Shown here: positions 1-32,589 of the stretch, one piece after another
Layout: every line of letters begins with the position of its first letter
Position numbering within the stretch: position 1 is the first letter of the stretch
DNA from: a virus
Reading direction: 5' to 3' (one strand)
Length of the DNA stretch: 64,000 bases
IMG/VR virus record: IMGVR_UViG_3300044981_000152
Location: 35,221-99,220 of that record
Position numbers and translations under genes: made by a program
The notes under the pieces: model-generated
Database searches by the model: none
Told to the model about the DNA's origin: nothing
Seen by the model: the letters and a program-made list of their open reading frames with translations, nothing else

Positions 1-124
1 GCACTGTGGTTAGATCGGGCAGCGAAGAGAAGGACGGCATACACGGGCTGTGCCGCGCTTGGCCCTGAGCGTTCGTTTGCCTGCGAGGGTGTCAGCCCAG
101 GACGCTGGCCGGTATGCCAGCGGC

Positions 125-153
125 CGGTCTCAGCCTAGCGCGGAGCCCGGCCG
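125..153. repeat. 29-30 bp direct repeat, copy 1 (CGGTCTCAGCCTAGCGCGG[G]AGCCCGGCCG)
   Basis: Matches 451-480 except for one extra G there; the core GCGCGGAGCCCGGCC also occurs at 306-320. Confidence 0.9.
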
Positions 154-308
154 GGGGTGGCGTCCCGCGTCCAAGTACCCCGGAGGGGTACAACTGCATC
201 CTGGCAATCGGAGGCAGGAAATATTATAACCGCGATCTGGCCAGGCCGTCCGGCCTGCGATGATTCCGCGTTTCCGCAGGTCGCGTTTCGGCTGTGGCCC
301 TGCATGCG

Positions 309-360
309 CGGAGCCCGGCCCCTCGCGTCTTCCTGGCGGTGTCGCGCGGGCCGGGCTCCG
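309..360. terminator. GC-rich hairpin, terminator-like
   Basis: CGGAGCCCGGCC (309-320) pairs with GGCCGGGCTCCG (349-360). Confidence 0.55.
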
Positions 361-450
361 TCAAGCAGGGCCAGTCTCGCCGCGGTCTGCTGACTGGCTG
401 CCGGTAATCGAAGTTACAGACCGCTTCTCTATCCGGCGGCGGTACGCACG

Positions 451-517
451 CGGTCTCAGCCTAGCGCGGGAGCCCGGCCGTGCCCCGTATCAACGGTCCG
501 GGGCGCGGACGGGCTCC
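451..517. repeat. direct repeat copy 2 plus long hairpin
   Basis: Repeat at 451-480; GGAGCCCG (469-476) pairs with CGGGCTCC (510-517), inner stem GCCCCG/CGGGGC. Confidence 0.8.
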
Positions 518-645
518 GTTAAAGCCGGCCCTGTGTCCGGCACTGCTCCGGTGCGGCGGTCATATCCCGAGCACTTCGAGGGTGATCAGTCCCGGTTACT
601 CAAGACGGGTAGGCCGCGCCGCCCGGCTCAACCTGCCTCACCAGC

Positions 646-1092
646 CTAGCGGTGGCCGTTCCCATTGAACAGCACCCCGGCTTCCAGGCGGCGCCACACC
701 TCGAGCGCCTCCTGACGCCGGGTCATGCCCGGCGTCGCCGCCGTTTCGCCGCCGTAGCAGCGGCAGGTGCGCTCATGATGGGCGAGCGGCCCGGCTACCT
801 CCATGAACTGGCATTCCTTGTGGACGTGGCGGATCCCGCCCGTCCTGTCGGCCTTCATGCATGGCATCGCCTGCCCGGAGTCGCCCGCTTCCTCGCTGAA
901 CGGCTCGTCGCAGTGCAGGCAGTTCTCGCCGACAGGGAAGGGCTTGCGCATCTCGGCGATCAACTGGCCGTCCTCGTCGTAGCAGATGTACGACCACCAG
1001 GGCTCGCCGAACCACCCCCAGTTGGCGCGGCGCACTTCGATGGGAATGTTATCGTACGGAGTGCCCGGCTTCCCGGTGTCAGCACCCATCAC
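646..1092 (-). CDS. hypothetical phage protein, Cys/His-rich
   Basis: Last ORF of the coupled minus-strand operon; CxxC and HxxC motifs. Confidence 0.7.
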   Translation of the reverse strand: MMGADTGKPGTPYDNIPIEVRRANWGWFGEPWWSYICYDEDGQLIAEMRKPFPVGENCLHCDEPFSEEAGDSGQAMPCMKADRTGGIRHVHKECQFMEVAGPLAHHERTCRCYGGETAATPGMTRRQEALEVWRRLEAGVLFNGNGHR

Positions 1093-1744
1093 GGCTCCCC
1101 TCGGTTCGCAGTTGCGCAGTCGCTTCCTTCAGCCGTTCCAGGCCCACGCCGCGCTCGCCGTTACGGCCCACGATCCGCATGAGCACATCCAACTCGCCCA
1201 GCTCGCGCGGCTCGAAGCGCCTGACCGGCTCGACCAGCGCAGCGGCACCGTCAGCGACGCGCCACTGTGCCGCGACCTCGCCTTCCCCTTCGTCGGTGAT
1301 GACCTGGGCGTGCAGGTCCAGGTACGGGAAAGCGGCGGCGATGGCCTGCCAGTCCTCCGTGACCTCCTTGGCGGTCGGCCATTTGCCGATGTTCCAGGTG
1401 GAGCAGCCGATCGCGCCGTCCCAGTCAAGCCAGCCGTGCGGGCCGCCGATCCAGGCCGAGACGATCCGCGAGTTGGTGAGGTGGTAAAGCGCGAGGCCGC
1501 CGATCGACTGGTACCACTCACCAGCGGCCTGCCAGGACATGTCCCAGTAGCTGTAGCCGCCGGCCTCGCGCCGGATCATCCCGATCCCGAGCACGTCGGC
1601 GACGGCCTTCTCCCACGCGCGGTCATTGGTGGAGAAGTACGGGCCGTTGGTCCGCAGCAGGATCTCATTCGCCTGCTTGCGGGTGACCGGCTCGGGCTTC
1701 TCGGGGACCACGATCAGGCGCGGCCACTTGGTCAGGTCTCGCAC
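1079..1744 (-). CDS. hypothetical phage protein (Trp-rich)
   Basis: 221 aa with protein-like composition, RBS upstream, overlaps the next ORF. Confidence 0.75.
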   Translation of the reverse strand: MRDLTKWPRLIVVPEKPEPVTRKQANEILLRTNGPYFSTNDRAWEKAVADVLGIGMIRREAGGYSYWDMSWQAAGEWYQSIGGLALYHLTNSRIVSAWIGGPHGWLDWDGAIGCSTWNIGKWPTAKEVTEDWQAIAAAFPYLDLHAQVITDEGEGEVAAQWRVADGAAALVEPVRRFEPRELGELDVLMRIVGRNGERGVGLERLKEATAQLRTEGSRDGC

Positions 1745-1781
1745 GGTTCCTCATCCTCCCGTACCTCGCGGGGCACCCCGA

Positions 1782-2042
1782 TCACGCCCCGATCCCCGCG
1801 AGGCGGTTCACGTAAAGCGTCCTGCCGTCCAGCCAGTCACCGAGCCCGGCGTACGGATGCAGCAGCCGCCCGTCGTCGTCGCGCGTCTCGAAGTTGTCAA
1901 ACGGGAGCGCGCCGCAGCCGGCGGCCCACCGCGCGGCTGTCGTGACGGGCGCCAGCGTCGACCAGCCCTCACGGACCTCGACGGTGACCTCAGTGCCGGT
2001 CACGTTCACCGCGATCTTCCGATTGGCGGTCTCAGTGCTCAC
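1782..2042 (-). CDS. ubiquitin-like beta-grasp protein, DUF2604-like
   Basis: GTG at 2042 with GGAGG RBS; IAVNVTGTEVTVEV...FDNFETRDDDGRLL...LYVNRLAGIGA follows the DUF2604 pattern as recalled. Confidence 0.7.
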   Translation of the reverse strand: MSTETANRKIAVNVTGTEVTVEVREGWSTLAPVTTAARWAAGCGALPFDNFETRDDDGRLLHPYAGLGDWLDGRTLYVNRLAGIGA

Positions 2043-2284
2043 CGGGCACCTCCTTCCACGGGCCGTAGGTGACGGTACGGGCGGACGAGCACAGCGGAAT
2101 CGGGCCAGCATCGCACCTCATGGCGCGCTCGGCGCTCGTTGTCGGGGCCGGTGCCCAGGATGGCCGCCTCCCCGCTGAGGTCGTCGTAGCGGACGCCCCA
2201 CTCGATCTTCAAGGCCTCGATGCGGCCCGTGATGATGTCCTCGGCTTCGTCCAGCTCGCGGGTGAGGTCGGGCTCAGCGGCCAT
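2039..2284 (-). CDS. hypothetical protein
   Basis: GTGA overlap with the downstream ORF. Confidence 0.6.
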   Translation of the reverse strand: MAAEPDLTRELDEAEDIITGRIEALKIEWGVRYDDLSGEAAILGTGPDNERRARHEVRCWPDSAVLVRPYRHLRPVEGGAR

Positions 2285-2453
2285 AGGTGACTCTCCCTTG
2301 CAAGTCGAGCCCGGCGTCACAGTCCGGGCATACGAACCCCACCTGCTCGCCGTCGTGCGTTTCCACTACGACCAGCTGGAAGTGGGAGCAGTTAACCTGA
2401 CGGACATAGGTACGCATAGCCAGCCGGTCGGCGGTCAAGTCACGGCCCGGCAT
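2274..2453 (-). CDS. small Zn-ribbon-like protein
   Basis: CSH...CPDC motif; overlaps both neighbours. Confidence 0.5.
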   Translation of the reverse strand: MPGRDLTADRLAMRTYVRQVNCSHFQLVVVETHDGEQVGFVCPDCDAGLDLQGRVTYGR

Positions 2454-2781
2454 CGGTCTCCCCTGTCTCAGCCGGGGCGGCCCCGGAGGGCACCTCCAGG
2501 TTGTCACGTCCGAACGCCTTAGCGGCGACAGCGGAAGCCGCCTCGAAGTGATGGTGCCAGGCAAGGTAGCCGCTTGATCCAGGGCCGGGTTCATTTTCGT
2601 CGGCATGACGGAGGATGGCGCTCGCGATCTTGTCGGCCAGGAGGGGAACGGCTGCTTCCAGGGCTGCGCGGGCGAGTGCGTCAGGCTCAGGGCTGCCGGG
2701 CCGGGTCAGATCGTCACGGAACTGGTCGCGGATGGCGGCTGTAGCAGCAGCGAGAACGGGGGCAGGGATGGGGTCAGGCAT
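2440..2781 (-). CDS. hypothetical protein
   Basis: Coupled ORF starting MPDPIPAP. Confidence 0.6.
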   Translation of the reverse strand: MPDPIPAPVLAAATAAIRDQFRDDLTRPGSPEPDALARAALEAAVPLLADKIASAILRHADENEPGPGSSGYLAWHHHFEAASAVAAKAFGRDNLEVPSGAAPAETGETDAGP

Positions 2782-3232
2782 CACGGCCCGGCTCGATCGC
2801 AGTCTGCTCACGCTCCAGATACCGCTGCCACACTGTCAGGCCGTCGTCGCCTTGCATGTAAGGCAGCATCACCTGGGCCATGTCGGCCACGCCCGCCTCG
2901 ATCAGCGCCAGCTGCGCCTCCAGCCAGTCCTTGAGAACGCGCCACGCAACGCGCTCGGCTTGCTCCAGGCTGGTGTACCGGTTAGGGACGTGACCGCGCC
3001 GGTAGCCTTCCTGCAGGGCCTTGTGGGTGCCGCGCACGTTGACCGGGAGCGCGAAGGTCCGCGGCCCGTATGGCGTGGTGATCACGAACTGCAGGCCGCT
3101 CGGCTTGAAGTTGTCATAGGTGATCCCGATGGCCGACGCACCGTGCTGGGCCAGCCGGGCGATACATTCCGAGGCTGATTTGGTGGCCTCGATCGTGGTC
3201 GTGTAGTTGAGCGGCCCTTTGCCTACGGGCAT
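2774..3232 (-). CDS. conserved hypothetical phage protein
   Basis: NYTT...QAERVAWRVLKDWLEAQLALIE pattern seen in many phages. Confidence 0.8.
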   Translation of the reverse strand: MPVGKGPLNYTTTIEATKSASECIARLAQHGASAIGITYDNFKPSGLQFVITTPYGPRTFALPVNVRGTHKALQEGYRRGHVPNRYTSLEQAERVAWRVLKDWLEAQLALIEAGVADMAQVMLPYMQGDDGLTVWQRYLEREQTAIEPGRDA

Positions 3233-3256
3233 GGTTCCTCCAGTTCTTCCCGCATC

Positions 3257-3670
3257 TCACTCATCCTCGGTGCCTTCTTTCAGCCCCAGCAGGGCAGAAG
3301 TGATGGCCAAGCGGATCTCGCATTCTTCGGCGGGCGCAGGGTCGCCGTGCTCGTCGCGGCAGCAGTCGCACAGTCCGTGGCGCTCGACGGTGACGCAATC
3401 CGGGCAGGCTTCGATCTCGTACCGGTCAAGCCCGATGCCTGCCCACGTGCGGTGCTCCGGGCACCTCTCAAGGTGCCTGGAATAGGCCGTCAGCGAGTGG
3501 AGTGCCAGCACTCTCTCAACCGCACAAAGGAGGAGAGGGACGTGCACGGCGCATGTGAGCTTGGGGCGGAAGAACTGGCTGTCCGCGTCAGCGTATGTCC
3601 GGATCTCGTCCAGGCGTTCCCGGATGACGGAGACGGGGGTGGTGGGGTCAGGGTCGGGCATCACGGCCAC
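3257..3670 (-). CDS. hypothetical Cys-rich protein
   Basis: Several CxxC motifs; in operon. Confidence 0.6.
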   Translation of the reverse strand: MAVMPDPDPTTPVSVIRERLDEIRTYADADSQFFRPKLTCAVHVPLLLCAVERVLALHSLTAYSRHLERCPEHRTWAGIGLDRYEIEACPDCVTVERHGLCDCCRDEHGDPAPAEECEIRLAITSALLGLKEGTEDE

Positions 3671-3867
3671 GCGAGGTTCTGGCCGGGCCGCTGCACGTCG
3701 TGAGCGCAGAGCCAGTCCTCGTTGCCGTCCGGGTCCGTGACCTTATAGGCGAGGTGCGGCTCGGGGCGGTTGCTGTCGGTCTCGCAGTCGCGGGCCTCCA
3801 GCACGGGCATCGTGAATCCGGGCATCAGGCGGTGCTCGATGATGTCGCCGGTCTTGAACTGGTCCAT
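3661..3867 (-). CDS. small SH3/KOW-like hypothetical protein
   Basis: FKTGDIIEHR start; RBS AAGGAGG. Confidence 0.6.
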   Translation of the reverse strand: MDQFKTGDIIEHRLMPGFTMPVLEARDCETDSNRPEPHLAYKVTDPDGNEDWLCAHDVQRPGQNLAWP

Positions 3868-3923
3868 GGGTTAGTCCTCCTTGGTTGGTGCCGCCGCGGG
3901 GGCGGCTAGCTCGGGTCGCGCCA

Positions 3924-4373
3924 TCAGCACGCCTCCCATAGTGTCCGCGGCATCCGCTCGGTGCCGGTCTGGCCCCGCGGCCTCGACGGACGGTCCCAGC
4001 CGGGATGAGGCGGCCGCTCGGCCACGACCCGCCATCCGGCCGCGCGCAGCGACGCACCGGGCTCCCCGGCCTGGGTGTACGTCACCAGGCGCGAATACCC
4101 CAGCGCTTTCGCAGCTTTCCAGCACGCCCCGTACAGCATCGAGCAGGCGTTCGGCCAGCCATCCGACGTCACCCGTGTTACCTCCAGCGTCTGCCCGTCG
4201 TCGAACAGCCGCGCCACCGGCCGGCCCGCAATGGCCACGCCTCGCAGCACGCCCTCCTGATCGGCCGCTCCCACGGCGAACTTCATCCCGCGGGGGGGGG
4301 CGTGGTGCCGGTGCCACATGGCCGTGAACGCCTTCGCCTCGCGCTGGGAGACGGGGACCAGGTGCAGGGTCAT
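3924..4373 (-). CDS. XF1762 family, Mom-like GNAT acetyltransferase
   Basis: HRHH...GVAIAGRPVAR...TLEVTR...NACSMLYGA...LVTYT...GASLRAAGW signature. Confidence 0.8.
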   Translation of the reverse strand: MTLHLVPVSQREAKAFTAMWHRHHAPPRGMKFAVGAADQEGVLRGVAIAGRPVARLFDDGQTLEVTRVTSDGWPNACSMLYGACWKAAKALGYSRLVTYTQAGEPGASLRAAGWRVVAERPPHPGWDRPSRPRGQTGTERMPRTLWEAC

Positions 4374-4826
4374 TCAGAACGCCGGCTCGTCGTCCAGGCC
4401 CTCGCCGGCCTCGTCTTCGCCGGCTCCATCCCAGCCCCAGCCGCCGGCCGGAAGCGCCGGTCTCGGCTCGGGCCGTTTCAGCGGAGTCGGCAGGCGGACC
4501 ACCTGGCATGCGGGGCCCATCACCACGTCGGCGATGATCCGGCCGTCCCAGTCGCGGACGACGAGGCCCTCAGCGCCGAACACCGATGCGCTGGCGATCC
4601 AGCCGGTGTGGTCGCGGCGGCCGGGTAGCTCCACGCGGCCCCATATCCCGTCAGGCCGGGAGTCCCCGGCCGGAGCCTCCTCGCCGCCAGCCGGCTCCCG
4701 GAGCGCGGCGAGGGTGCGCTCCATCACCTCGCGGATGTCGTCGGTCACCGGGTACGGCGCGTAGCATGCGCACACCTTCTGCAGCAGCTCCAGGTCGGCC
4801 CTGCTGACGGTTACGGTCTCGCTCAT
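4374..4826 (-). CDS. hypothetical protein
   Basis: ATG at 4826, abuts the next gene. Confidence 0.6.
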   Translation of the reverse strand: MSETVTVSRADLELLQKVCACYAPYPVTDDIREVMERTLAALREPAGGEEAPAGDSRPDGIWGRVELPGRRDHTGWIASASVFGAEGLVVRDWDGRIIADVVMGPACQVVRLPTPLKRPEPRPALPAGGWGWDGAGEDEAGEGLDDEPAF

Positions 4827-4828
4827 CC

Positions 4829-5113
4829 TCAGTCCTGCCGCCCGGCCATCAGGTGCCGGACCGACTCGCCGATGTGGTCCAGGGGCTCCCATTCGACCGT
4901 CTCGGTCTGCTCGATCACGTGGTGCGCCCCGTCGTAGTCGATCTCCTGACGGCTGACGTAGACGGCCCGGTGCCACGTCGGCTCGCCTTCGGCCGGCCGG
5001 TCGTGACCGTCAGGCTCGGTGCAGTGCAGGTCGATGCGGCCTCCCTTGACCGCGCGGCACTTGCGGGGCTCCGCGTCCGGCGCGGCCGGGTTCTCTCGTC
5101 TCTCGATGCTCAT
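4829..5113 (-). CDS. hypothetical protein
   Basis: Operon position. Confidence 0.55.
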   Translation of the reverse strand: MSIERRENPAAPDAEPRKCRAVKGGRIDLHCTEPDGHDRPAEGEPTWHRAVYVSRQEIDYDGAHHVIEQTETVEWEPLDHIGESVRHLMAGRQD

Positions 5114-5250
5114 TTCTGCTCCGTCCAGATAGTCACGGTGGCCAGATCCTGGGATGCCATCACCGAGATCACCTCAAGGTCGTCCCCGTCGATGGCTATG
5201 GCGTCCTCAGGCATTGCCTTCAGGTGGTCGATCAGCTGGGTTACGGTCAC
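5110..5250 (-). CDS. 46-aa hypothetical protein (not in ORF track)
   Basis: AAGGAG RBS plus GTG; VTVTQLIDHLKAMPEDA...; ATGA overlap. Confidence 0.55.
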   Translation of the reverse strand: MTVTQLIDHLKAMPEDAIAIDGDDLEVISVMASQDLATVTIWTEQK

Positions 5251-5322
5251 GGCGATCTCCTTTCCCGTTTGACGGCGATGCACGGCAGCGGACAGATGTA
5301 GACGGCGTAAGGGCTGGCCCGC

Positions 5323-5487
5323 TCACCGGAGCAGCAGCATCTCAAGGGCGAGCAAGAGCATGGAGACGAGGTTCACCGCCTGCGTGCGCCGGCTCAAGGT
5401 GGCGCCGGCCAGCACGCTGCCGAGCTGGCAGATGCACAGGAGCACCAGCACTCCACCCGTCACGGCGTGCCATGTTCCGAGGTTCAT
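5323..5487 (-). CDS. small membrane protein
   Basis: Two hydrophobic segments; ATGA overlap. Confidence 0.5.
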   Translation of the reverse strand: MNLGTWHAVTGGVLVLLCICQLGSVLAGATLSRRTQAVNLVSMLLLALEMLLLR

Positions 5488-5885
5488 TCGCTGTCTCTTT
5501 TCTCGTCGCCGCGTTCTTCCAGCTCGCACCCGAACTCGTTCCCGCAGCAGAAGTGATGCTCCCTGCACGAGCGTCTCATCAGCTCCCCGGCGGGCAGCGT
5601 CTCACCGGGCGCCAGCGATTCCTTCACGCGGTCCGCCAGCACCTTGCAGAACGCCCAGTAGTGGCCCTGGTGAGAGTTGCCGGTGTGGTGCCCGCAGCGG
5701 GGGCAGACGACACAGCGGCACGCCATGGTCCCGTCAGGCATGTGGTAGACGCTGGGAGCCTCGGCGTCGCACGCCGAGCCGGGCACGGGGGCGAGGCCGA
5801 TAACCTCGCCGAGGATGAAGCCCTTCGCGGCCAGTTCCGCTCGCAGCGCGTCATCGGGCGGCGGGGGCATGTCGTCAGGCTGCAT
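5484..5885 (-). CDS. Cys/His-rich hypothetical protein
   Basis: CRCVVCPRCGHH, HHFCC motifs. Confidence 0.6.
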   Translation of the reverse strand: MQPDDMPPPPDDALRAELAAKGFILGEVIGLAPVPGSACDAEAPSVYHMPDGTMACRCVVCPRCGHHTGNSHQGHYWAFCKVLADRVKESLAPGETLPAGELMRRSCREHHFCCGNEFGCELEERGDEKRDSE

Positions 5886-6534
5886 GCGGGGCCACCCCCC
5901 GCTGTGACCGTTTCCGCGTCCGCTGGTACTCCCGGTCCAGCCCGGCCAGGGCGTCAGGGACAGCCCGGCCCGCGTTGCGCTGCCGCGCCGCCTCGGCGTG
6001 GGCCTGCCGCAGTACCGCCAGCCACGGCTCCGCGGGCAGCGGGGCGACCCGCCGCGGTCCGGCCAGCGCCGCCGGATTCCGGGCCCACCGGCCGGCCGAC
6101 GGCTTCCGGGCCCGGTGCGCAGCGTCGTACGCGTCCAGTTCCCGCAGCAGGATCTCCCGGTGCAGCGCCGCCTCCGGGTCCGGGGGGATTCCCGGCGGGG
6201 CCTCGTGCGCGCCGGCGGCGAGGCGGATCAGGGCGTCGATCAGCGGCTGCGCGCGGTGGCCGCCCATCGGGGCCGACGCCTCGTCGGCGCGGGCCATCGC
6301 CTCAGCCAGGACCTCGTCGCCGATGCCCGCGGGGAGCGCGGCGCGCTCGCCGGGGACCAGTCCGCCGAAGACCCCGTACTGCTCGCCGGCCGACAGCGCG
6401 GCCCGCAGGCACCGGGCCCGGACCGGGCAGCCCTGGCAGACCGTGCGGGCCCTGGCCAGATCGGCGGGGGTGTCGGGGAAGAACAGGTCCGGGTCCTCGT
6501 CCAGGCACGCGGAGCGGTCGCGCCAGCCGGTCAC
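5875..6534 (-). CDS. whiB: WhiB-family transcription factor with C-terminal extension
   Basis: C...DLFFP...CQGCPVRARC...GVFGG four-Cys WhiB motif. Confidence 0.9.
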   Translation of the reverse strand: MTGWRDRSACLDEDPDLFFPDTPADLARARTVCQGCPVRARCLRAALSAGEQYGVFGGLVPGERAALPAGIGDEVLAEAMARADEASAPMGGHRAQPLIDALIRLAAGAHEAPPGIPPDPEAALHREILLRELDAYDAAHRARKPSAGRWARNPAALAGPRRVAPLPAEPWLAVLRQAHAEAARQRNAGRAVPDALAGLDREYQRTRKRSQRGVAPHAA

Positions 6535-6661
6535 AAGATGCTCCGCTCAGCCGCCCGGTCCTTGATGTGTTCCGGGGGAGTCGTTATCGTCATCAGTGCT
6601 TGATCCTTCCCGGGCGGCCAGCCCCTACCGTGTTGCTGGCCGCCCGTCCATCGTTTCCGGC

Positions 6662-7525
6662 TCAGGCTGGCTGGCCGTGCATCACCGTCACGTTGCACTC
6701 GGCCGCGAGCTTGTCGACGACCTTGGTCACGGCCTCCCGGGCGACCCGTGCCGGCTCGTTCATGAAGTACCCGAGCGCCAGCGTCTTGTCCTGGCCGATG
6801 CGGTACCGGAGCCGGACCGCCATCACGGCCGGCGCGATGTCCTCGTACGGGGCGATCAGGAGGTCGAACTCGTTCGGCATCTCGATCGTGCCCCGCTTGG
6901 CGTTCTGCCCGGTGGCCGCGATCTCCTCGATGTAGCTGAACTGGGTCTGCCCGGAGGAGACCCGCGTGCCGCTGGTCATCGCGACCTTGAGGGTGGCCTT
7001 GAAGTTCTGGGCGGTCTCTAGCAGGTCGGCGGACTTGACCGCGCCGGCCGGGTCGATGTCGCTGGCGTGCTCCTCAAGGAACTCCGCGAACGCCTCCTGC
7101 CCCATGAACCTCCGGTCCTTCGCGGTCCAGTCCTGCCACGGGAGCGTCGGTGTCAGGGCCAGGATGAGCCGGTGCTGCTGCCAGCGGGCACCCTCGCCGG
7201 CGGCCAGGCCGTCGCCGTCCGCGTCGGTGCCCCGGTGGGCGTCGAGGACGGCCGTCACGGTGCCCGCGTCGAGATCGGCGAACACCTCGGAGTCCTCGTC
7301 GGCGTGCTTCCCGTAGTACCGGGCGAAGCTGGCCACGTTCCGCACGGTGACCGTGCCGCGCTTGCGCTTGGGGAAGTCGCGGTACGTGTCGCCGGTCAGG
7401 TCGATCTGCTCGAGGCGGCCGCCGGGCAGCGCGACCGCGTAGAAGGCGCCCAGATCTAGCTCGTTCGGCTTGGCGGCGCAGGTGGCCAGGTCGCGGACGA
7501 CCTCGGCGTCTATGGTTTCTGTCAT
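6662..7525 (-). CDS. DUF2303 family protein
   Basis: SFARYY...TAVLDAH...W...MGQEAFAEFLEEH...VRLRYRI pattern. Confidence 0.85.
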   Translation of the reverse strand: MTETIDAEVVRDLATCAAKPNELDLGAFYAVALPGGRLEQIDLTGDTYRDFPKRKRGTVTVRNVASFARYYGKHADEDSEVFADLDAGTVTAVLDAHRGTDADGDGLAAGEGARWQQHRLILALTPTLPWQDWTAKDRRFMGQEAFAEFLEEHASDIDPAGAVKSADLLETAQNFKATLKVAMTSGTRVSSGQTQFSYIEEIAATGQNAKRGTIEMPNEFDLLIAPYEDIAPAVMAVRLRYRIGQDKTLALGYFMNEPARVAREAVTKVVDKLAAECNVTVMHGQPA

Positions 7526-10385: not shown

Positions 10386-11752
10386 GCGGCACGCTCCAGT
10401 CCGCCCGAGGGGCTCCAAGGGCGGTACAGGCTGGTGCACCTCGCGTAGTGGCCCTGGAAAGCCAGCGTCACCGTGGCCTGCGCGCCCTGCCTGTTCTTCG
10501 CCACGATCAGGTCGATCTCCCCGGCCCGCGGCGACTCGCGCTCGTAAGCGTCCTCGCGGTACAGCAGGATCACGATGGACGAGTCCTGCTCAACCGAGCC
10601 CGACTCGCGGAGATCGGCGAGCAGCGGCCGGTGGTCGGAGCGCATCTCCGGGCCGCGGTTAAGCTGGCTGCCGACCATGACGGGAACCTCGAACTCCTTG
10701 GCCAGCAGCTTGATGCCGCGGGAGATCTCCGACACCTCGGCCTGCCGGGACTCGGTTTTGCCGGCCGAGGTCATGAGCTGGAGGTAGTCGACGACGACCA
10801 GGCCGGCCGGCGTCCCGGCCCGCCGCATGGATCGCAGCTCCGACCTGATGCCCTGCACCGTCAGGTACGGATCGTCGTTGATCATCAGGTGCGGGCATGC
10901 GGCCAGCTTTCCGTACGCTCCCGCGATCCGGTCCCAGTCGCCGTCATCCAGGCTCGCGCCGCGGATACGGTGAAGGCCGACGCCGCCCTCGGCGGCCAGC
11001 AAGCGCTCCGTGCATTCCTGCCCGGACATCTCCAGGCTGGCGAACAAGACCGGGATGCCAGCCGTCAGGGCCGCATGCGCGGCAACGTTGAACATGACGG
11101 TGGTCTTGCCGACCGAGGGCCGCGCCCCCACGGTGACCATCTCCCCCGGCTGGAAGCCCAGGATCACCTCATCCAGGTCCCGCCACCCCGACATCACCCC
11201 GGAGGCCGCGTCCGGGCCTTTCTCGATCCGCTCGAGGGCCGGGGTGGCGAGGGTGGCGATGCTGCATGCCCGCGTCGCGGCCGAGCGGCCCGTGGCCTCG
11301 TCCAGTGCGCGGTATGCGGCCTCGATCCGCTGCGGTATCTCGTCGGCGTCGATATCCAGCGCCCACCCGTACTGCCCGATCCGGGTACCCGCCTCGATCA
11401 GGCCCCGGAGCGCGGCGTACTTGGCGACGATCCGGGCGTAGTACCCGGCGTTCGCCGCAGTCGGCACCGACGCTATGAGGGTGTGGATGTACGGGGCACC
11501 CCCGACCTTTCCGAGCCGGCGTGTCGCCTGGAGATGGTCAGCGACCGTGATCGCGTCGACCGGGCCGCCGCGGGCCTGGAGCTCGAGGATCGCTTCGTGG
11601 ATGACCTGATGCGCCGGCAGGGAATGATCCGAGGGGCGCATCACCTCAGCCACGTCGGCGAGGGCTTCCTTCGACAGCAGCATGCCGCCGAGGACGCACT
11701 GTTCCGCCGCGAGGTCGTGCGGGGGCACGCGCTCGAAGTCGTCGTCGTTCAT
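10382..11752 (-). CDS. dnaB: replicative DNA helicase
   Basis: PPHDLAAEQCVLG N-terminus, GARPSVGKT Walker A, VVVDYLQLM, SQLNR, DLRESGSVEQD, KNRQG. Confidence 0.97.
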   Translation of the reverse strand: MNDDDFERVPPHDLAAEQCVLGGMLLSKEALADVAEVMRPSDHSLPAHQVIHEAILELQARGGPVDAITVADHLQATRRLGKVGGAPYIHTLIASVPTAANAGYYARIVAKYAALRGLIEAGTRIGQYGWALDIDADEIPQRIEAAYRALDEATGRSAATRACSIATLATPALERIEKGPDAASGVMSGWRDLDEVILGFQPGEMVTVGARPSVGKTTVMFNVAAHAALTAGIPVLFASLEMSGQECTERLLAAEGGVGLHRIRGASLDDGDWDRIAGAYGKLAACPHLMINDDPYLTVQGIRSELRSMRRAGTPAGLVVVDYLQLMTSAGKTESRQAEVSEISRGIKLLAKEFEVPVMVGSQLNRGPEMRSDHRPLLADLRESGSVEQDSSIVILLYREDAYERESPRAGEIDLIVAKNRQGAQATVTLAFQGHYARCTSLYRPWSPSGGLERAA

Positions 11753-12483
11753 GCGCCCGGCTTCCTGCGGTCGGTGCCGGTCATCGCGACCACCTCGCAC
11801 ATTTCCGCGAGGCGGCTGGCGGCACGCTCCCCGATCTGGTCAGCCAGCTTCGAGGGGGGCAGGTTGCTGGTGACGATCAGCGGCAGGCAGTTGGCGTAGC
11901 GATGGTCGATGACGGAGTAGACCCGTTCCTGCGTCCACTCCGATGGCTTCTCCGCGCCGATGTCATCGATGACGAGCAGGGCAGCGCGCTGGCAGTCGCG
12001 GATGGTCTGCACGGCGGCATCGCCGGGGCGCAGGTCGTCTAGCAGGTCGGTCAGGCGGGTGAAGATGACGTTCGGGGCGGTGCGGGCGGCAGGCCCTCCC
12101 CAGTCCACTGCCGGGGGTTCCTCGCCGTGCGGCCTGACGCCGGTCGCCTGACACCAGGCGGCGAGGGCCATCCATGCGGTGTGGGTCTTGCCTGTCCCGA
12201 CCTGGCCCGCGAGGTACAGGCCCTGCGCCTTCCTGCCCCGCGATGCCCACTCCGCGGTGGCGGCGGGGATCTCGACGGGGGCGCGGAACCTCGGCGGGGT
12301 GAAGCACAGGATCGCCTCGGCAAGTTGTTCCCTCGCGCAGTGCGGGCACTCTGCCGAGGCCGGGTAGTCGCCGCGCTCGTCATGGCGGATCACCGTAGCC
12401 CACTTGCCGTCGCCTCTGCACTCGGCTGATACCGCGTCCGGGAAGAACCCGGACAGGTCGCCGTGGTTCTGCTTACCAGCCAC
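11749..12483 (-). CDS. DnaC/IstB-like AAA+ helicase loader
   Basis: GQVGTGKT, LLVIDDIGAE, IDHRY...IVTSN; lies between initiator and DnaB. Confidence 0.9.
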   Translation of the reverse strand: MAGKQNHGDLSGFFPDAVSAECRGDGKWATVIRHDERGDYPASAECPHCAREQLAEAILCFTPPRFRAPVEIPAATAEWASRGRKAQGLYLAGQVGTGKTHTAWMALAAWCQATGVRPHGEEPPAVDWGGPAARTAPNVIFTRLTDLLDDLRPGDAAVQTIRDCQRAALLVIDDIGAEKPSEWTQERVYSVIDHRYANCLPLIVTSNLPPSKLADQIGERAASRLAEMCEVVAMTGTDRRKPGA

Positions 12484-13830: not shown

Positions 13831-15702
13831 TCACGCTGCACGCTCCAGGTCCGCACCGGTGATCGCCTCGACCAGCGCCGAGATGATGACCTCCGCCACC
13901 GGCGGCGTAACAGCGTTGCCGTACTGGCGCACCTTCTCGCGCTTGCTGCCGAGCACCTGATAGGCCGCGCCGAACGCCATGGCCGCGCCGATCTCGCCGG
14001 GCTCCAGCATCCGGAACAGCACGTCCTCGACGCTGACGGCGGCACTGGCGAGCGCCCAGCGGTCGGTTGCGGTGATGGCTCCCACGGGCTCGGCCGCGGT
14101 CCTGGCCACGCCCGTGCCGTAGTACGGCATGAGCAGGTGGGCCAGGTGCTCCCAGGTGATCAGCGACTGATGACCTGCCGTGGTGAGGGTACGGAACGGC
14201 TCGCTGGCCGGGGTGGACATCTGCCCCTGATCACCCCGCGCCGTGTTGTTCCGCATGATCATCGCCAGGCCGGGCGGCGAGATGAGCGCGTGGTGGGCAC
14301 CGGAGGCGCTGACCGTGCTTATCGGCCCGGTTACCGGCTGCGCGTCCATGTTGCCGCGCATGACGGCGATGAACGGCGGCACGGCAAGCCCGGTCTCGGC
14401 TCTGGCCGTCTGGGTCCGCATCGGGTCAGACGCCGGGAGCGCTTCCTTGCCCTCGCGGCCCTCGACGGGGACGAGCATCGGCGCCTGCGTGACGAGCCCG
14501 TGATTGCCCCCGTCCGCGACCACCGTGGCCAGCGGTTCAGTCTCGGCCAGGATTGAGCGGTTGCGCCCGGAGCGCAGCGGCACCAGGAACGGCGGCGTCA
14601 CGAGCCCGAACGGCTGGCTTGACGCGGTGAGGGATGCGAGCGGCTCGGTCACGGCCGACGTGCGCAGGTCATCCTGGCCGCCGCGGTTGACAGTCAGGAA
14701 CGGCGGGCACGCCAGCGCCTTCGTCGCCGTGGCGGTCTGCGTCGTCAGCGGCTCGTCGACCGGCCATGTCCGGACACCCGGCCGCCGCTCGAACGTGTTC
14801 CCCGCGGCCTCCAGCGTGATCGGCCGCGCGTACCGCTTCAGGCCGGCCTCGATCCGCGCGATCGTCTTCGGCTTCAGCGGGACCGCACGGTCCCCGATCC
14901 GGATTCCGGCGAGGGACCAGTCGATGGCCGCAGCCGCCGGCATCGCCGCAGGCTCCACGACCTGGCTGCATGAGACGCGCGGGCAGCGGTAGACGTACTG
15001 CTGCCGGTAGCGGCCCATGTCGCTGCCCGCGCGCTTCCACCACTGCACCGCGGCCACCGCCTGCTCGCACGACGGGCACCAGGCCAGCGGGCGCAGCCAC
15101 CGGTCCCAGTCGGGGTCACGGCCGAGCGATGCCGACCAGTAGGCCAGGTACAGCCGGTCCCTGGACTGCGGCGCGTACGGCGTGACCAGCGGCCGGGCGT
15201 GCATCGAGTTGATCGCGATCAGCCGCGTCCGGTAGCCCAGGTTCGCGATCGAGGCGACCCATTCCCGCCACGCGGTCCACGCCCGGACATCGGTAACGTT
15301 CTCGACCACCCCGGCCAGCACCGGCCGGCCGCGCAGCTGCATCGCCTCCAGGTACCGGGGTACGTCCCACATCAGGGAGCGGGACCGGTCGGTGGCCTCA
15401 TCGGGCAGCGTCTCCCCGAACAAGTCAGGCTGCTTGTCGTAGTCGCGGCGCTGGCCGCGGGCCACGGACCAGGTAGGGCACTCCGGCGATGCCCAGAACA
15501 GGTCACCGGCGGGGAACTTCTCCACGTCGGCGTCGTGCAGGTCGCCCTGGTAATGCTCGGTGGCGGGGAAGTTGAGCGCGTGCGACTCGATCGCGCGGGC
15601 CCAGTGGTTCGCCGCTAGCCGCGCGGTGACGCCGGGGACCGCTGTCGCGCCCTGGCTGCTGCCGCCGGCGCCGCAGAAGAAATCGATCAGGGTCAGGCTC
15701 AC
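13831..15702 (-). CDS. DNA (cytosine-5) methyltransferase
   Basis: DFFCGAGG (motif I), SPECP (IV), ENV (VI), QSRDR (VIII), QYGNAV (X). Confidence 0.95.
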   Translation of the reverse strand: MSLTLIDFFCGAGGSSQGATAVPGVTARLAANHWARAIESHALNFPATEHYQGDLHDADVEKFPAGDLFWASPECPTWSVARGQRRDYDKQPDLFGETLPDEATDRSRSLMWDVPRYLEAMQLRGRPVLAGVVENVTDVRAWTAWREWVASIANLGYRTRLIAINSMHARPLVTPYAPQSRDRLYLAYWSASLGRDPDWDRWLRPLAWCPSCEQAVAAVQWWKRAGSDMGRYRQQYVYRCPRVSCSQVVEPAAMPAAAAIDWSLAGIRIGDRAVPLKPKTIARIEAGLKRYARPITLEAAGNTFERRPGVRTWPVDEPLTTQTATATKALACPPFLTVNRGGQDDLRTSAVTEPLASLTASSQPFGLVTPPFLVPLRSGRNRSILAETEPLATVVADGGNHGLVTQAPMLVPVEGREGKEALPASDPMRTQTARAETGLAVPPFIAVMRGNMDAQPVTGPISTVSASGAHHALISPPGLAMIMRNNTARGDQGQMSTPASEPFRTLTTAGHQSLITWEHLAHLLMPYYGTGVARTAAEPVGAITATDRWALASAAVSVEDVLFRMLEPGEIGAAMAFGAAYQVLGSKREKVRQYGNAVTPPVAEVIISALVEAITGADLERAA

Positions 15703-22244: not shown

Positions 22245-23222
22245 TTACGCATCCCCCTTGAGCGTGACGTTGAACTGGCGGAATCCCTTGTCCGTGACGA
22301 CCTCAGCGGCCACGTCGGGATACTTCTCGCGCAGGACCGCGATTCCTTCCTTCGGGACGCTGGTCTTGCTGCGGTTCGCCCACCGGGCGACGGTCTCGCC
22401 CTCGTACGTGGCCGTCCCGGCGTCGCCCATGGCGGCGGTGATGAGCGCCTTGATCTCGTTCTTCCGGCCCTTGGCGGCGCTCTCGTTGGCGAGCTCCTTG
22501 CGGTACTCGCGCAGCAGGGCCACGTCGGCGGCGGACAATTCCGCCGTCTTGCCGTCGTCCGCCTCGGGGTACAGGCGCGCGATCAGGTCGGCCGACGCGC
22601 GGCCTTCGAGGGCGGGCGGGGTGCGGGCCTCGACCAGGTGCCAGAACTCTTCCTCGCACGCGGTCAGGTCGGCGATGAACGCCTCGTCCCGCTCGATCCG
22701 GCGGATGACCGGGGGCTGCCCGCCGACCTGCGCGGCCAGCCATGCGTGCGGCAGGCCGGTGACCGCCATGGCGTGCTGGGCCTGCGCCTCGGCGCCGTCG
22801 GCGACGATCTCGCCCTCGCCGTCTTCCCACTCGCCGCGGCGGTGGTAGTTCGTGTTCTTGATCTCCAGGATGCCGCCGTCGGCCGTGAGCCGGTCGACGG
22901 ACACCCGCTGCCACGTCCGCTCGGCGTGCTGCATGAGCCCGCAGCGGCGGGCGCTGACGCCGGTCTTGAACGTGAACCACTCGGCGATGGGCCCCTCGAC
23001 GTAGTTGCCCCAGGCCATGCCGTCGGTCTGCTCGCGCTCACCCCGGTCGTCGCCGGTCTTGTCGAGGTAGACCTCCATGCGGGTCTTCCACGGGTCCAGG
23101 CCCAGGACCGCGAGGGCGTCGCTGCCGCCGATGCCGTCCCGCCGCAGCCTCAGCCACTCCTCGCGGGGCGTGTCGTAGCGGGCCACCAGGATGCCGGCCG
23201 GCGTGACCTTGCGCCCGGTCAT
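22245..23222 (-). CDS. YqaJ-family viral recombinase exonuclease
   Basis: WLRLRRDGIGGSDA, SVDR...ILEIK; adjacent to recT. Confidence 0.93.
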   Translation of the reverse strand: MTGRKVTPAGILVARYDTPREEWLRLRRDGIGGSDALAVLGLDPWKTRMEVYLDKTGDDRGEREQTDGMAWGNYVEGPIAEWFTFKTGVSARRCGLMQHAERTWQRVSVDRLTADGGILEIKNTNYHRRGEWEDGEGEIVADGAEAQAQHAMAVTGLPHAWLAAQVGGQPPVIRRIERDEAFIADLTACEEEFWHLVEARTPPALEGRASADLIARLYPEADDGKTAELSAADVALLREYRKELANESAAKGRKNEIKALITAAMGDAGTATYEGETVARWANRSKTSVPKEGIAVLREKYPDVAAEVVTDKGFRQFNVTLKGDA

Positions 23223-23575
23223 GACGCACCGCCTGCGGCTGCCCGACCCTCGGCCGACGTGAGCACCTCGGCCAGGGGGGATCTGCCCGCGGTGACGTAC
23301 GCCGGGTCGATCTCGCGGGTCACGAACTCGGCGAAGCGGTCCGCGTCGTCCTTGCCGTCCACGATCCAGGCCGCGACCACGCGCTGGAGCTTGGCGGCCT
23401 CGGCGTACCCGATCTGCCACGCTTCCTCGGCCACGTGGCGGGCCATGACGGCAGGGTCGGGATGGGTGCCGCGTTCCACGGCGAGGTCCAGCTGGAAACT
23501 CGCCGGGCCAGTGTGCGAGGTCTCGTCGCCGGGCCGCGCGCCGCCGGTCAGGATCACGACGTACTGGCCGCTCAT
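23219..23575 (-). CDS. hypothetical protein
   Basis: Coupled ORF. Confidence 0.6.
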   Translation of the reverse strand: MSGQYVVILTGGARPGDETSHTGPASFQLDLAVERGTHPDPAVMARHVAEEAWQIGYAEAAKLQRVVAAWIVDGKDDADRFAEFVTREIDPAYVTAGRSPLAEVLTSAEGRAAAGGAS

Positions 23576-23916
23576 GCCGCTGTCTCCCGGTCGTTCCGGG
23601 GCTCGCACCCCGGGAACACGCGGATCAGCTCAGCCGTCCAGTACGCGACGTGCTCAGCGGCCCGCTCCAGGGCCGTGTGCAGCGCCTCCGGGTCACCCTT
23701 GAGGTCGTCCCATTCGGATGCGGGGTGGATGAGGTCACGCGAGAGCGCGTCGTACAGGTCCAGGGCGTCCTGCAGCGCGCCGGCCTCGGCCTTCGCGGCA
23801 TCGCGGACGCTGGCGGGCCATTCGGGGCTGGTGGCGCGGGCGAGGACCAGGAGCCCGTACGCGACGGTCTCGCGGCGGCACTCCGGGGTGATCGCCCCGG
23901 TCCCGTTGATGATCAT
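23572..23916 (-). CDS. hypothetical protein
   Basis: Coupled ORF. Confidence 0.6.
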   Translation of the reverse strand: MIINGTGAITPECRRETVAYGLLVLARATSPEWPASVRDAAKAEAGALQDALDLYDALSRDLIHPASEWDDLKGDPEALHTALERAAEHVAYWTAELIRVFPGCEPRNDRETAA

Positions 23917-24401
23917 GCTGCCTGCCCCTCCCGCCGCCGTTCGGCCTCCACCTGGTGCATGGCGAACGCGATAGCCCGGCGTACCCCGACGGCGGTCTCG
24001 TCGAGTTCCTCGTGGATGCTGCGGCGGGCCTTGCGGACGTAGGCGTGGATGTCCTCGTACCACCCGTCGCGGATGTCCTGCCCGAACCGCAGCCATACCG
24101 CGTCGTCGCCCGCGTACAGGACGACCCCGGTGCCGGGACGCTGCCCGTACTTGTGGTAGTCGCACCGGCACGGCGGCTCCGGCTCGGGGGCGGGGCTGCC
24201 GGTGACGGCCAGGAACGGTCCCGTGTGATGCTCGGCGTAGCCTCCCGCCATCGCTGCCGCGTGCTGCGGTACCGGCACGGCCGGGTACTCGTGCGCTACT
24301 TCCGGCAGGGGGACGAGCACGCCCGCGGCGGACACGGCACGACCCGCGGCCGGCGTCGTCGTGCGCGCGGAGCGGAACCGGCGGGGCCTGCGGCGGCTCA
24401 T
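23913..24401 (-). CDS. hypothetical protein
   Basis: Coupled ORF. Confidence 0.6.
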   Translation of the reverse strand: MSRRRPRRFRSARTTTPAAGRAVSAAGVLVPLPEVAHEYPAVPVPQHAAAMAGGYAEHHTGPFLAVTGSPAPEPEPPCRCDYHKYGQRPGTGVVLYAGDDAVWLRFGQDIRDGWYEDIHAYVRKARRSIHEELDETAVGVRRAIAFAMHQVEAERRREGQAA

Positions 24402-24745
24402 GACGCCGCCTGCCCGGTGAGCGCGGCGAACGCGGCGTCATGGTCGGGGGTGTAGTGCGCGTCGACGGTCAGCGACTCGCCGTCCTGGGTCCACCGGCGC
24501 TGGGCGAAGTACGTCTCGTTGCGGAAGTCCAGCGGGACGCCGAGCCAGTCGGCGATGGCCTGCGCTTTCGCGAGGCGCTCGGCGGGGGTGCCGTCGGCGA
24601 TCTTGATGCTGATGACGGCATCGAGCTTGGGCCGTCCGTCCGGGTGGTTATCCCAGTAGGCGGAGACCTCGGCGAGGACGATGCTGCCCCCGGAGGTCCC
24701 GTTCCCGGTCGCGAGGGACTTCTCGCGTTCAGTCAAGCCGATCAT
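24398..24745 (-). CDS. hypothetical protein
   Basis: GGAG RBS; first gene after the Cro-like gene. Confidence 0.65.
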   Translation of the reverse strand: MIGLTEREKSLATGNGTSGGSIVLAEVSAYWDNHPDGRPKLDAVISIKIADGTPAERLAKAQAIADWLGVPLDFRNETYFAQRRWTQDGESLTVDAHYTPDHDAAFAALTGQAAS

Positions 24746-24847
24746 GTCTCGTTCTCCGTTTCCGATATCGGTCTGTTATCCTTTGGTTGTCCGTTCTCCG
24801 GACATCCCGCCCCGCTGCGTCACCAGCGGGGCGAAGTTCCCTCTTTG

Positions 24848-25168
24848 CTAGGCCGCCGCCCCGTTCACCTGGGGCGGGCACTCGTGGCCGGGCTCCCACA
24901 GGCTGCTGCACCCGACGCATACGGTCGCGAGGCGCGTGCCGGGCCGGCCGTCCTTGCGCTCCAGCGATTCCCCGGAGCAGCCGAAGACTTCCGCCAGCCG
25001 GGCGATCATCGCGGGATGGGCGTTGCGGGTGCCGCTCTCGATCATGCTGACCAGGGCGAGGGATACGCCGAGCCGCCGCGCCACGTCGCTCTTGGTCAGG
25101 CCGGCCTGCTTGCGTGCCCAGGTCACGGCCTGCGGCTCGTGGTCGAAGACTGGCTTGGGGTTGCCCAT
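24848..25168 (-). CDS. Cro-like XRE HTH regulator with C-terminal Cys cluster
   Basis: ARKQAGLTKSDVARRLGVSLALVSMIESGTR; CVGC...HEC. Confidence 0.88.
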   Translation of the reverse strand: MGNPKPVFDHEPQAVTWARKQAGLTKSDVARRLGVSLALVSMIESGTRNAHPAMIARLAEVFGCSGESLERKDGRPGTRLATVCVGCSSLWEPGHECPPQVNGAAA

Positions 25169-25337
25169 GACGGGAACAATAGTGTGAAGGGACGTTATAT
25201 GCAAGTACCTACCGGCACCTTCTCGCACCTTTTTCACAAGCCCTTCACAGACCTGCGCCGAAGTGTTACCGTCACGGGCGGGCGGGATACGCGCACCTGG
25301 TAGACACCTGGTGTGAACCTATGTGAAGGTAGACCGC
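25169..25337. promoter_or_regulatory. divergent lysis/lysogeny switch region
   Basis: Between divergent HTH genes; five TGTGAA/TTCACA half-sites. Confidence 0.7.
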
Positions 25338-26024
25338 ATGGATACGCGCCCGCCACAGCCCCCCGAAGGCCGTCTCATAGGCGATGCAGCCGAACGCCTC
25401 GACCTCTCCATCAGGGAAGCAGCCCGCCGCGCCGGCATCTCCTACGGCCGCTGGCGCCAGATCGTCCAGGGCTACCAGAACGTCTCCCCCGGCAACTACG
25501 CGATAGTCCGCATACCCGACACCGGACGCGCGGCCAGGACCCTGGCGAAGATGGCGGCAGTCGCCGGCGTCACGCCCGAGCAGATGGAGACCATCGGGCA
25601 GCGTCCCGCCATAGCCGAGGTGATGCGCAGCCTGCCGGGCGCCCCGCGCCCTGTGCTCGCCGGCGAGTCCCCTCCTGACGCCCCGCCCGGCTTCATCAGC
25701 CGGGAGGCAGAGGAGGCAGCGCGGCCGTTCAGGGACGAGATCTGGCTGCGGCGCGGCGAGTGGAGAGAAAAGTACGCCTCCGCCCATCCCGGCATCGCCC
25801 CCAGCGACATCCCGGAGCCGCCCGGTGCCGCCCTGTTCGGCGAGGGCAGCCCTGACGCCCAGGACTGGGACCGCATGGGGAGCCGCGGCCTCGACCTCCA
25901 GGGGCGCATATGGGTCCTCGCCGCCACGCAGGTCCACGAGGCCAGGGCAAAGGACCGGGAAGCGGCCGGGTTAACCGGCCCGGTTCGCAGCAAGCCTCGG
26001 CAGCGTCGTATTACCGCGCGGTAA
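25338..26024 (+). CDS. CI-like immunity repressor (XRE HTH)
   Basis: LSIREAARRAGISYGRWRQIVQGY...TLAKMAAVAGVTPEQM; divergent from the Cro-like gene. Confidence 0.85.
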   Translation: MDTRPPQPPEGRLIGDAAERLDLSIREAARRAGISYGRWRQIVQGYQNVSPGNYAIVRIPDTGRAARTLAKMAAVAGVTPEQMETIGQRPAIAEVMRSLPGAPRPVLAGESPPDAPPGFISREAEEAARPFRDEIWLRRGEWREKYASAHPGIAPSDIPEPPGAALFGEGSPDAQDWDRMGSRGLDLQGRIWVLAATQVHEARAKDREAAGLTGPVRSKPRQRRITAR

Positions 26025-26175
26025 CGATACCGGCACGGACATAAGTGACCGCCTGCCGGCTATTGCCGGGCTGCGGACTGTGACACGAGGATTTCTGGTC
26101 TACTGGTGCAATGAGAGGGGCACGCTTAGCTCCGAGGAGCGGCGGGCAACGCAAGTTCAAGGGGAGGGCCTGGCG

Positions 26176-32317: not shown

Positions 32318-32467
32318 TCAGCCGTTGTGGTACATCTGCGGGACCGGCTGGCTCCCGTTGTGATACATGGCCGCGGTGCCTGCGGGGGCTGCCGCGGTGG
32401 CGACGGTGACGGCGGGCACGGTGAGGGCGGCGGCACCGATGAAGACGGCGGCTATGAGCTTGCGCAT
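32318..32467 (-). CDS. 49-aa secreted pro-peptide with two MYHNG copies (not in ORF track)
   Basis: GGAGG RBS 8 nt before ATG; MRKLIAAVFIGAAALTVPAVTVATAAAPAGTAA-MYHNG-SQPVPQ-MYHNG*; the copies differ only at synonymous positions. Confidence 0.85.
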   Translation of the reverse strand: MRKLIAAVFIGAAALTVPAVTVATAAAPAGTAAMYHNGSQPVPQMYHNG

Positions 32468-32589
32468 GATGCGCACCTCCAGGCGCACTGTGCCAGGGGC
32501 GGGTCTTAGACCGCTCGTGGCTTACCACGGCCCCGGAAACATCGTGGCATCCGCGGCTGGCGGGCCCGGCCGTCCGGAAGGGGCGAACC

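Follow-up and report, generated by a model that had tools for sequence, protein, structure and literature searches.

The small gene at positions 1782 to 2042 of the viral DNA studied here very probably encodes a single-domain ubiquitin-like protein (Ubl) of the BilA/DUF2604 type, a member of a distinct subfamily whose genes occur singly, as cassettes of one gene, in temperate phages of soil actinobacteria. In bacteria, Bil systems correspond to the antiviral tagging by ISG15 and ubiquitin. As a lone and well-conserved relative of their Ubl, the phage protein appears to be a credible candidate for a viral decoy against Bil defence. The analysed stretch, called the window below, covers the final 64 kb of an IMG/VR virus record of 99,220 bp, which was rated as 100% complete by CheckV.

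The coding sequence (P0001, 86 amino acids) is located on the minus strand at 1782..2042, including the stop codon. It starts with GTG at 2042-2040 and ends with TGA at 1784-1782. A Shine-Dalgarno sequence, GGAAGGAGG, was read at 2049..2057 of the same strand, 6 nt upstream of the GTG. The start codon overlaps the TGA stop of an upstream ORF of 93 amino acids (2039-2320) as GTGA (2039..2042, minus strand), which suggests translational coupling of the two genes within a co-directional leftward operon. A longer frame of 109 amino acids, beginning with the ATG at 2111, was tried and rejected, since the GTG at 2042 is favoured by its ribosome binding site, by the overlap as GTGA and by where the homologues begin. 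The homologues P0003 and P0010 also have 86 amino acids, and their N-termini agree with this start. The protein ends with TLYVNRLAGIGA (LYVNRLAGIGA). The codons of its C-terminal tail L81-A82-G83-I84-G85-A86 occupy 1785..1802 on the minus strand; the alignments, the tallies of the C-termini and the predicted interface of residues 79-86 that concern this tail are described below.

In public metagenomes, 29 close relatives with identities of 54-99% were found. A codon comparison of seven copies on independent contigs gave pairwise dN/dS values of 0.09-0.22 for close copies. The gene is under purifying selection, and together with the 29 relatives the dN/dS values argue that this ORF is more than a chance frame of DNA with 70% G+C. 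An 86-residue ORF with a good ribosome binding site and the end LYVNRLAGIGA, as described in the original prediction, is therefore real. In a scan of window positions 1-5000, neither a promoter nor a terminator was found. Among the sequencing runs listed as containing the sequence, there is no RNA run; the only full match among them is a soil metagenome, which may be the source sample.

For assignment of the protein to a family, we compared it with Pfam, PDB and canonical DUF2604 proteins. Pfam family DUF2604 (PF10790) matched the protein over profile positions 7-84 of 85 with an E-value of 1.6e-4 and 22.5 bits. This score of the single sequence is slightly below the family cut-off of 25 bits, and some members of the phage clade reach 29-30 bits. 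A profile of the clade (alignment A2) matched BilA of Ensifer aridi (8TYX/8TYZ) over the full length with an E-value of 5.6e-16, and it also matched the last beta-grasp domain of the multi-Ubl proteins 8U38 and 9D5B. By hhalign, the similarity to 18 canonical DUF2604 proteins had a probability of 97.5% and an E-value of 6e-12. An AlphaFold2 (AF2) model built with 23 sequences reached a mean pLDDT of 87.7 and showed the beta-grasp topology with the order beta-beta-alpha-beta-beta. Foldseek placed the BilA chains 8TYX_A and 8TYZ_B at the top for this model (TM 0.76-0.80, 30% identity), with ubiquitin, SUMO and Ras-binding domains (RBD) ranked behind them; 8TYX_A was the best structural match (TM 0.76-0.79). 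The beta-grasp fold of the DUF2604 type that had been proposed for this protein was thereby supported at the level of profiles as well as of the predicted structure. Searches of the protein against PHROGs, PADLOC and NCBIfam gave no match.

DUF2604 genes had been said to sit normally beside E1, E2 and JAB genes, and this proved to be correct for cellular genomes. A scan for the canonical DUF2604 pattern in one genome per GTDB species yielded 47 cellular loci from many phyla, 10 of which belong to Actinomycetota. In nearly all canonical loci the Ubl is followed by proteins of about 206, 160 and 510 amino acids. In three actinobacterial loci these were, in this order, a Metal_CEHH protein (BilB), a protein without Pfam family (BilC) and a protein with Prok-E2_C and ThiF domains (BilD). 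The order agrees with the Type II bilABCD operon (Chambers et al., doi 10.1101/2023.09.26.559546). Type II BilC genes of cellular operons (L019 7866-8339 and L049 6205-6687) have no Pfam match at E < 1e-3, so that Pfam screens with Prok-JAB and JAB miss this protein and a custom HMM is needed. Custom HMMs for BilB, BilC and BilD were built from ten canonical operons. They recovered BilB in 46, BilC in 44 and BilD in 43 of the 47 loci, and every miss was due to a contig ending too soon. Type II Bil is present in Actinomycetota but rare: strong BilD matches were obtained in 3 of 400 sampled actinobacterial genomes, the centre genome not being counted, and six weaker matches were seen, two of them in the unpublished genomes G004 and G051. 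Among metagenomic proteins, natural fusions of DUF2604 with Metal_CEHH, i.e. of BilA with BilB (Ubl-E2), were observed (P0056-P0058, P0073 and P0077). Tandem di- and tri-Ubl forms also occur (P0047 and P0053).

The phage is devoid of these enzyme genes. We searched the complete 99-kb phage and eight related contigs with the custom HMMs for BilB, BilC and BilD (--max), taking every stop-to-stop frame of at least 30 amino acids in all six frames with all filters off, and none of the three was found. The best score was 12 bits and belongs to an antisense ORF. The Pfam family search gave no match to ThiF, Prok-E2_C, Prok-JAB, Prok-E2_A or Metal_CEHH in the phage genome. Such negatives are weak alone, because the same search missed the DUF2604 match of 22.5 bits, and for this reason the custom HMMs were used. 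Direct Pfam scans of 28 phage proteins and of 10 neighbours on related contigs revealed no E1, E2 or peptidase. The original prediction had reported that the window holds no E1, E2 or JAB gene; by HMMs and Pfam, the same applies to the other 35 kb of the phage, and the six-frame search detected no cognate E1 or E2 elsewhere in the 99 kb. A search for longer or fused forms of the phage-type Ubl gave one protein with an unexplained N-terminal extension. In this respect the phage-type Ubl differs from canonical DUF2604, which is sometimes fused to Metal_CEHH.

These results bear directly on the idea that the gene is a leftover of a phage-carried bilABCD operon, or that its cognate enzymes are encoded elsewhere in the phage. 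Prophages often carry defence systems, and the original prediction was drawn from 64 of the 99 kb. However, the complete record yielded nothing in six frames with HMMs that recover 43 to 46 of 47 true operons. The gene is moreover maintained by purifying selection and occurs as a lone gene in nine contexts, and its approximately 45 members form an old, diversified clade. An operon remnant was therefore rejected as nearly excluded, and we regard this explanation as extremely improbable.

In total, about 45 phage-type relatives are known, all from soil and peat metagenomes or from phage contigs. HMMER found only 20 clusters among 1.8 billion representative proteins, and a wider profile search links these clusters to ordinary DUF2604. 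In a tree of 94 sequences, 32 phage-type proteins are located on one side of a branch with an SH-aLRT support of 100 and a length of about 2 substitutions per site. No match to the Ubl protein was obtained by tblastn in 50,697 GenBank phage records, and the pattern scan over one genome per GTDB species gave no phage-type member. IMG/VR added one further record, and JGI metagenomes added seven. The residues W27, T29, T35, R38, W39, C43, G44 and F48 are conserved in the phage clade and missing from canonical BilA. A survey of solo DUF2604 genes in phages, which had been suggested with the original prediction, thus revealed a separate clade without enzymes.

Comparison of nine loci showed that only the Ubl gene recurs; one other gene is common to two loci and stands at different positions. 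In contig L001, the Ubl homologue is located between the large terminase gene and a portal gene (10782-12452, plus strand) which contains an intein with Hint and LAGLIDADG domains. In contig L006, it is directly followed by an RNA-repair cluster (4643-7476, plus strand) encoding an RLIG1-like RNA ligase, a CCA-adding enzyme with an HD domain and an RlaP nucleotidyltransferase. In contigs L007 and L008, the homologues lie among genes of PHROG families. Taken over all loci, the contexts are terminase and portal genes, RNA-repair genes and the early region. Lone recurrence in such unrelated contexts points to a mobile accessory gene for which no partner from the phage is required.

Several members of the clade or matches to its profile have an unusual architecture. 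P0051 (198 amino acids) is a phage-type Ubl preceded by a winged helix of the MarR type at its N-terminus, either as a fusion or by read-through. P0034, P0036, P0041, P0043 and P0048 carry N-terminal extensions without any family match. In P0044 (2643 amino acids) and P0046 (2056 amino acids), the Ubl profile matched only via 8-11 short repeats of region 43-63, which resemble the segment G-x-x-P-F-D-N-F-E-x-R-D. These repeats are either a re-used motif or chance matches of low complexity.

By PHROGs and Pfam, the carrier phage encodes DnaB, a large DNA methylase, RecT, RecE, the large terminase, a portal protein and a Mom-like protein as well as ParB, WhiB, DUF2303, DUF5131 and HTH regulators. 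A tyrosine integrase (L010 12669-14054, corresponding to G000 32669-34054 of the whole record, plus strand) and an Xis-like HTH_17 gene (L010 12318-12554, G000 32318-32554, minus strand) are located just left of the window, about 3 kb from the Ubl gene, from which we conclude that the phage is temperate. A protein of 219 amino acids with an N-terminal WhiB domain is encoded at window positions 5875-6534 on the minus strand (Pfam E-value 2.9e-21). Together with the G+C content of 70%, the WhiB gene points to an actinobacterium as the host of the phage. The first 12 kb of the window had no match to phages by megablast.

The Ubl gene is located near the far end of a long leftward operon, which runs from an HTH region at about 25 kb over RecE/RecT, DnaB, WhiB and Mom towards the integrase. 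The far end of an operon, near the integrase, is a typical location of accessory genes. From the position within this replication and recombination operon we infer that the Ubl gene is expressed early. At window positions 24848-25237 (minus strand) and 25323-26024 (plus strand), Pfam identified divergent HTH_3/HTH_31 genes. This pair resembles an immunity switch, and the leftward operon that holds the Ubl gene would start there. The Mom-like DNA modification protein is encoded in the same operon, 2 kb from the Ubl gene, at 3924-4373 on the minus strand (phrog_1384, E-value 7.6e-37). In addition, a DNA methylase of 623 amino acids is located at window positions 13831-15702 and an N6_N4 methylase of 906 amino acids left of the window. 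The Mom-like protein and the two methylases indicate that the phage invests heavily in DNA modification. In a PADLOC scan of 105 phage proteins, the best 25 of 60 families were mostly methylases. The flanking ORFs at 2039-2320, 1079-1744 and 646-1092 gave no informative match in PDB or the Atlas. In a region of 3.2 kb with 76% G+C left of the window (G000 23081-26317), no ORF passed the codon-position filter; the region is non-coding DNA or else an unusual gene, perhaps one rich in repeats.

The C-terminal end of the phage protein deserves a closer comparison with BilA. BilA of E. aridi ends with ...LKAGVAG97-A98, and BilC cuts between Gly97 and Ala98 (doi 10.1101/2023.09.26.559546). Unprocessed BilA occupies the E1 site, and in the BilD crystal the uncut Ala98 blocks ATP binding (doi 10.1101/2023.09.26.559546). 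The phage Ubl ends with ...RLAGIG85-A86. The tails show no gap in the alignments by HMMER, hhalign and MAFFT, in which Ala86 is placed under the reactive Gly97 and Gly85 under Ala96. The original remark that the Gly-Ala end may need processing or may block conjugation calls for a qualification: E. aridi BilA ends with Gly-Ala as well, but in these three alignments Ala86 falls in the column of the reactive Gly97 and not of the leaving Ala98. In canonical BilA, the reactive column holds Gly in all 66 alignable proteins, with 0-12 further residues behind it. In a set of 45 phage-type proteins, the same column holds Ala in 32, Gly in 8 and Thr in 1, and in 2 the residue is absent. Alanine is thus found there in about 70% of the phage clade, and extra C-terminal residues are very rare. 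Of the 45 proteins, 44 have kept Gly85, which is invariant in the 23 rows of alignment A2. Eight phage-type members end with Gly-Gly, like mature BilA that can be conjugated, and these look fully competent. The copy of contig L001 ends at Gly85.

To judge from these alignments, either most of the clade has given up the reactive glycine, or the reactive residue is Gly85 and the tail is shorter than that of BilA by one residue. Either way, the geometry would differ from that of a normal BilD substrate. In a rival explanation, the phage protein would be a genuine modifier rather than an inhibitor, trimmed and activated at Gly85, or at Gly86 in the Gly-Gly forms, by Bil-type enzymes of the host or by an unrecognised E1. 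It would then be attached covalently to proteins of the host or of rival phages to the advantage of the phage or lysogen, e.g. by retargeting of the host system or by harmless capping of the lysines that BilA targets. Behind Gly85 the clade varies, with A, G, D, T, GL or no residue at all. Such variation would be expected if a reactive glycine is followed by a residue that leaves, and E. aridi BilA with its Gly-Ala end, cut in between by BilC, offers a parallel (doi 10.1101/2023.09.26.559546). A role in lysogenic conversion would be possible in a temperate phage with integrase and Xis-like genes 3 kb away, and the predicted position of the tail, which reaches the Gly-rich loop of the E1, would also suit activation. 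On the other hand, in three gapless alignments it is residue 86 that coincides with the reactive glycine, and the use of Gly85 would leave the tail one residue shorter than that of BilA. Furthermore, the nine loci show no accompanying E1, E2 or peptidase. We therefore consider a genuine modifier unlikely.

For prediction of an interaction with the E1, the Ubl (alignment A2) was co-folded with BilD from Streptosporangiaceae (alignment A5). The three runs gave ipSAE values of 0.84, 0.84 and 0.77, and the best of three controls reached 0.02. In the calibration, 58 of 80 solved complexes and 2 of 110 mismatched pairs came up to this mark, counts which hold only roughly here, since custom alignments were used. 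At least 78% of the contacts were common to the runs, and the pLDDT of the partner was at least 81. Because a similar complex (8TYZ) has already been solved, the pass speaks for a likeness to BilA and not for binding by the phage copy; it may reflect memory of solved structures, and the BilD used is a stand-in from another organism. The co-fold that had been proposed as a check of the original prediction passed its controls (0.84 against 0.02), and with the stand-in enzyme no more than likeness is indicated. The predicted interface comprises the five residues that are invariant in the family (G16, R54, G58, L60 and G85), the invariant loop G203-x-G205-A206-x-G208 of the E1 and the whole C-terminal tail (residues 79-86), which reaches this Gly-rich loop. 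Interface positions are better conserved across subfamilies than the other positions (mean BLOSUM score 1.70 vs 0.57, one-sided p 0.026). The segments with the best conservation across subfamilies are the motif P-x-D-N-[FW]-E-x-R-D-x-x-G-x-L-L and the A-G-[IV]-G tail.

This conservation is also of importance for another interpretation, which sees in the protein a beta-grasp adaptor unrelated to Bil. It would bind another partner, for example a factor of the host or phage or a different adenylating enzyme of the ThiF/MoeB type, and its likeness to BilA would be only ancestral. The long branch between the clade and all operonic BilA proteins fits with this, as do the clade's own conserved residues (W27, T29, T35, R38, W39, C43, G44 and F48), the additional N-terminal regions of some members, including one MarR-type winged helix, and the rarity of Bil systems in the sampled Actinomycetota. 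However, the segments that are best conserved across subfamilies lie largely in the predicted contact surface of the E1. An adaptor of this kind has in our view a small probability.

The phage Ubl is quite possibly a pseudo-substrate or competitor for the Bil enzymes of the host. Under this reading, the protein would be made from the long leftward operon, together with RecE/RecT, DnaB, the methylase and WhiB. It would dock onto Type II Bil enzymes of the host in the same way as BilA, with the beta-grasp body on the adenylation domain of BilD and the tail threaded toward the Gly-rich loop that binds the nucleotide. It may also occupy the BilC peptidase. With its terminal Ala at the position of the reactive glycine, or with a tail that is one residue short if Gly85 is the functional end, the protein would be a poor or dead-end substrate in either form. 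By competition with the BilA of the host, the conjugation of Ubl onto phage proteins would be blunted. Fold, homology, the lack of companion enzymes, the structure of the clade and purifying selection are established by the analysis, and from there we infer the binding to Bil enzymes, the timing of expression and any effect on defence.

Several observations weigh against a decoy. The clade is separated by a long branch from every operonic BilA, and for a mimic of a current host protein less divergence might be expected. The conserved residues W27, T35, R38, W39 and C43 suggest an additional or different partner. With strong BilD matches in 3 of 400 actinobacterial genomes, the target of a decoy would be rare. 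The eight Gly-Gly ends and the near-invariant Gly85 are as compatible with continued activation of the protein as with an inhibitor. Whether the clade may represent the first phage counter-defence against bacterial Ubl immunity, i.e. a pseudo-ubiquitin which enters the active sites of BilD and BilC like BilA and, by its Ala-for-Gly exchange or by its short tail, stalls them as a dead-end or very slow substrate, is a more speculative proposal, and we put it forward with some doubt. Such a protein would be a natural analogue of the laboratory ubiquitin mutant G76A.

If true, the pseudo-substrate mechanism would be the first described countermeasure of a phage to ubiquitin-like immunity in bacteria. 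The natural variation from Gly to Ala at the reactive position could reveal how E1 enzymes get trapped, and the Ubl of 86 amino acids would serve as a small and readily tested reagent for recognition by BilD and BilC. Even if the decoy idea fails, BilA-type Ubls exist outside of bilABCD operons.

Among the known systems, the best match to the phage Ubl in sequence and structure is Type II BilA, e.g. that of Ensifer aridi (8TYX, 8TYY, 8TYZ and 8TZ0; PF10790). Both consist of a single beta-grasp domain of about 85 amino acids, and both have the motif P-x-D-x-W/F-E-x-R-D-x-x-G-x-L-L and the tail A-G-[VI]-G-x. The predicted docking of the phage Ubl on BilD also resembles that of Type II BilA. Unlike Type II BilA, the phage Ubl is encoded by a phage whose genome has no bilB, bilC or bilD, and a long branch sets its clade apart. 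The reactive column of Type II BilA always holds Gly (66 of 66), with 0-12 extra residues, whereas A, G, D, T or nothing is found in the phage clade. Type I BilA of Collimonas sp. OK412 is an ISG15-like di-Ubl which is conjugated to the central tail fibre of a phage (doi 10.1101/2023.09.04.556158). Like the phage Ubl it is ubiquitin-like; it acts as a modifier in an anti-phage conjugation system and has a C-terminal glycine. In contrast, Type I BilA consists of two fused Ubl domains and always ends with Gly; the phage Ubl, which has no PADLOC match, is nearer to Type II.

Viruses of eukaryotes provide a further parallel. The ubiquitins of baculoviruses (v-ubi), pestiviruses and giant viruses are virus-borne copies of the host modifier that come without enzymes, and the idea that a virus carries the modifier so as to tamper with conjugation in the host would be common to both cases. 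Among the fold matches from the viral library, these ubiquitins turn up with 11-25% identity to the phage Ubl. These ubiquitins are close copies of eukaryotic ubiquitin, and they belong to another domain of life and to another set of enzymes. A phage relative of BilA without enzymes would extend this arms-race theme of viral modifiers to bacteria. In phages, Ubl domains of the type of the lambda tail assembly protein I, which occur with the JAB/NlpC protein gpK, were reportedly described by Iyer, Burroughs and Aravind in 2006. The lambda I-type domain is likewise a phage beta-grasp domain with a C-terminal Gly motif, and it is part of a tail module with a JAB peptidase. The phage Ubl differs from it in that its loci show neither such a peptidase nor a conserved linkage to tail genes, and a relation in sequence was not detected. 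In the literature searched, no paper mentions DUF2604, and none describes a BilA mimic of phages or a countermeasure to Bil. In comparison with these systems, what appears to be new here is a known Ubl family in a viral setting without its enzymes and with an end that is altered at the presumed reactive position.
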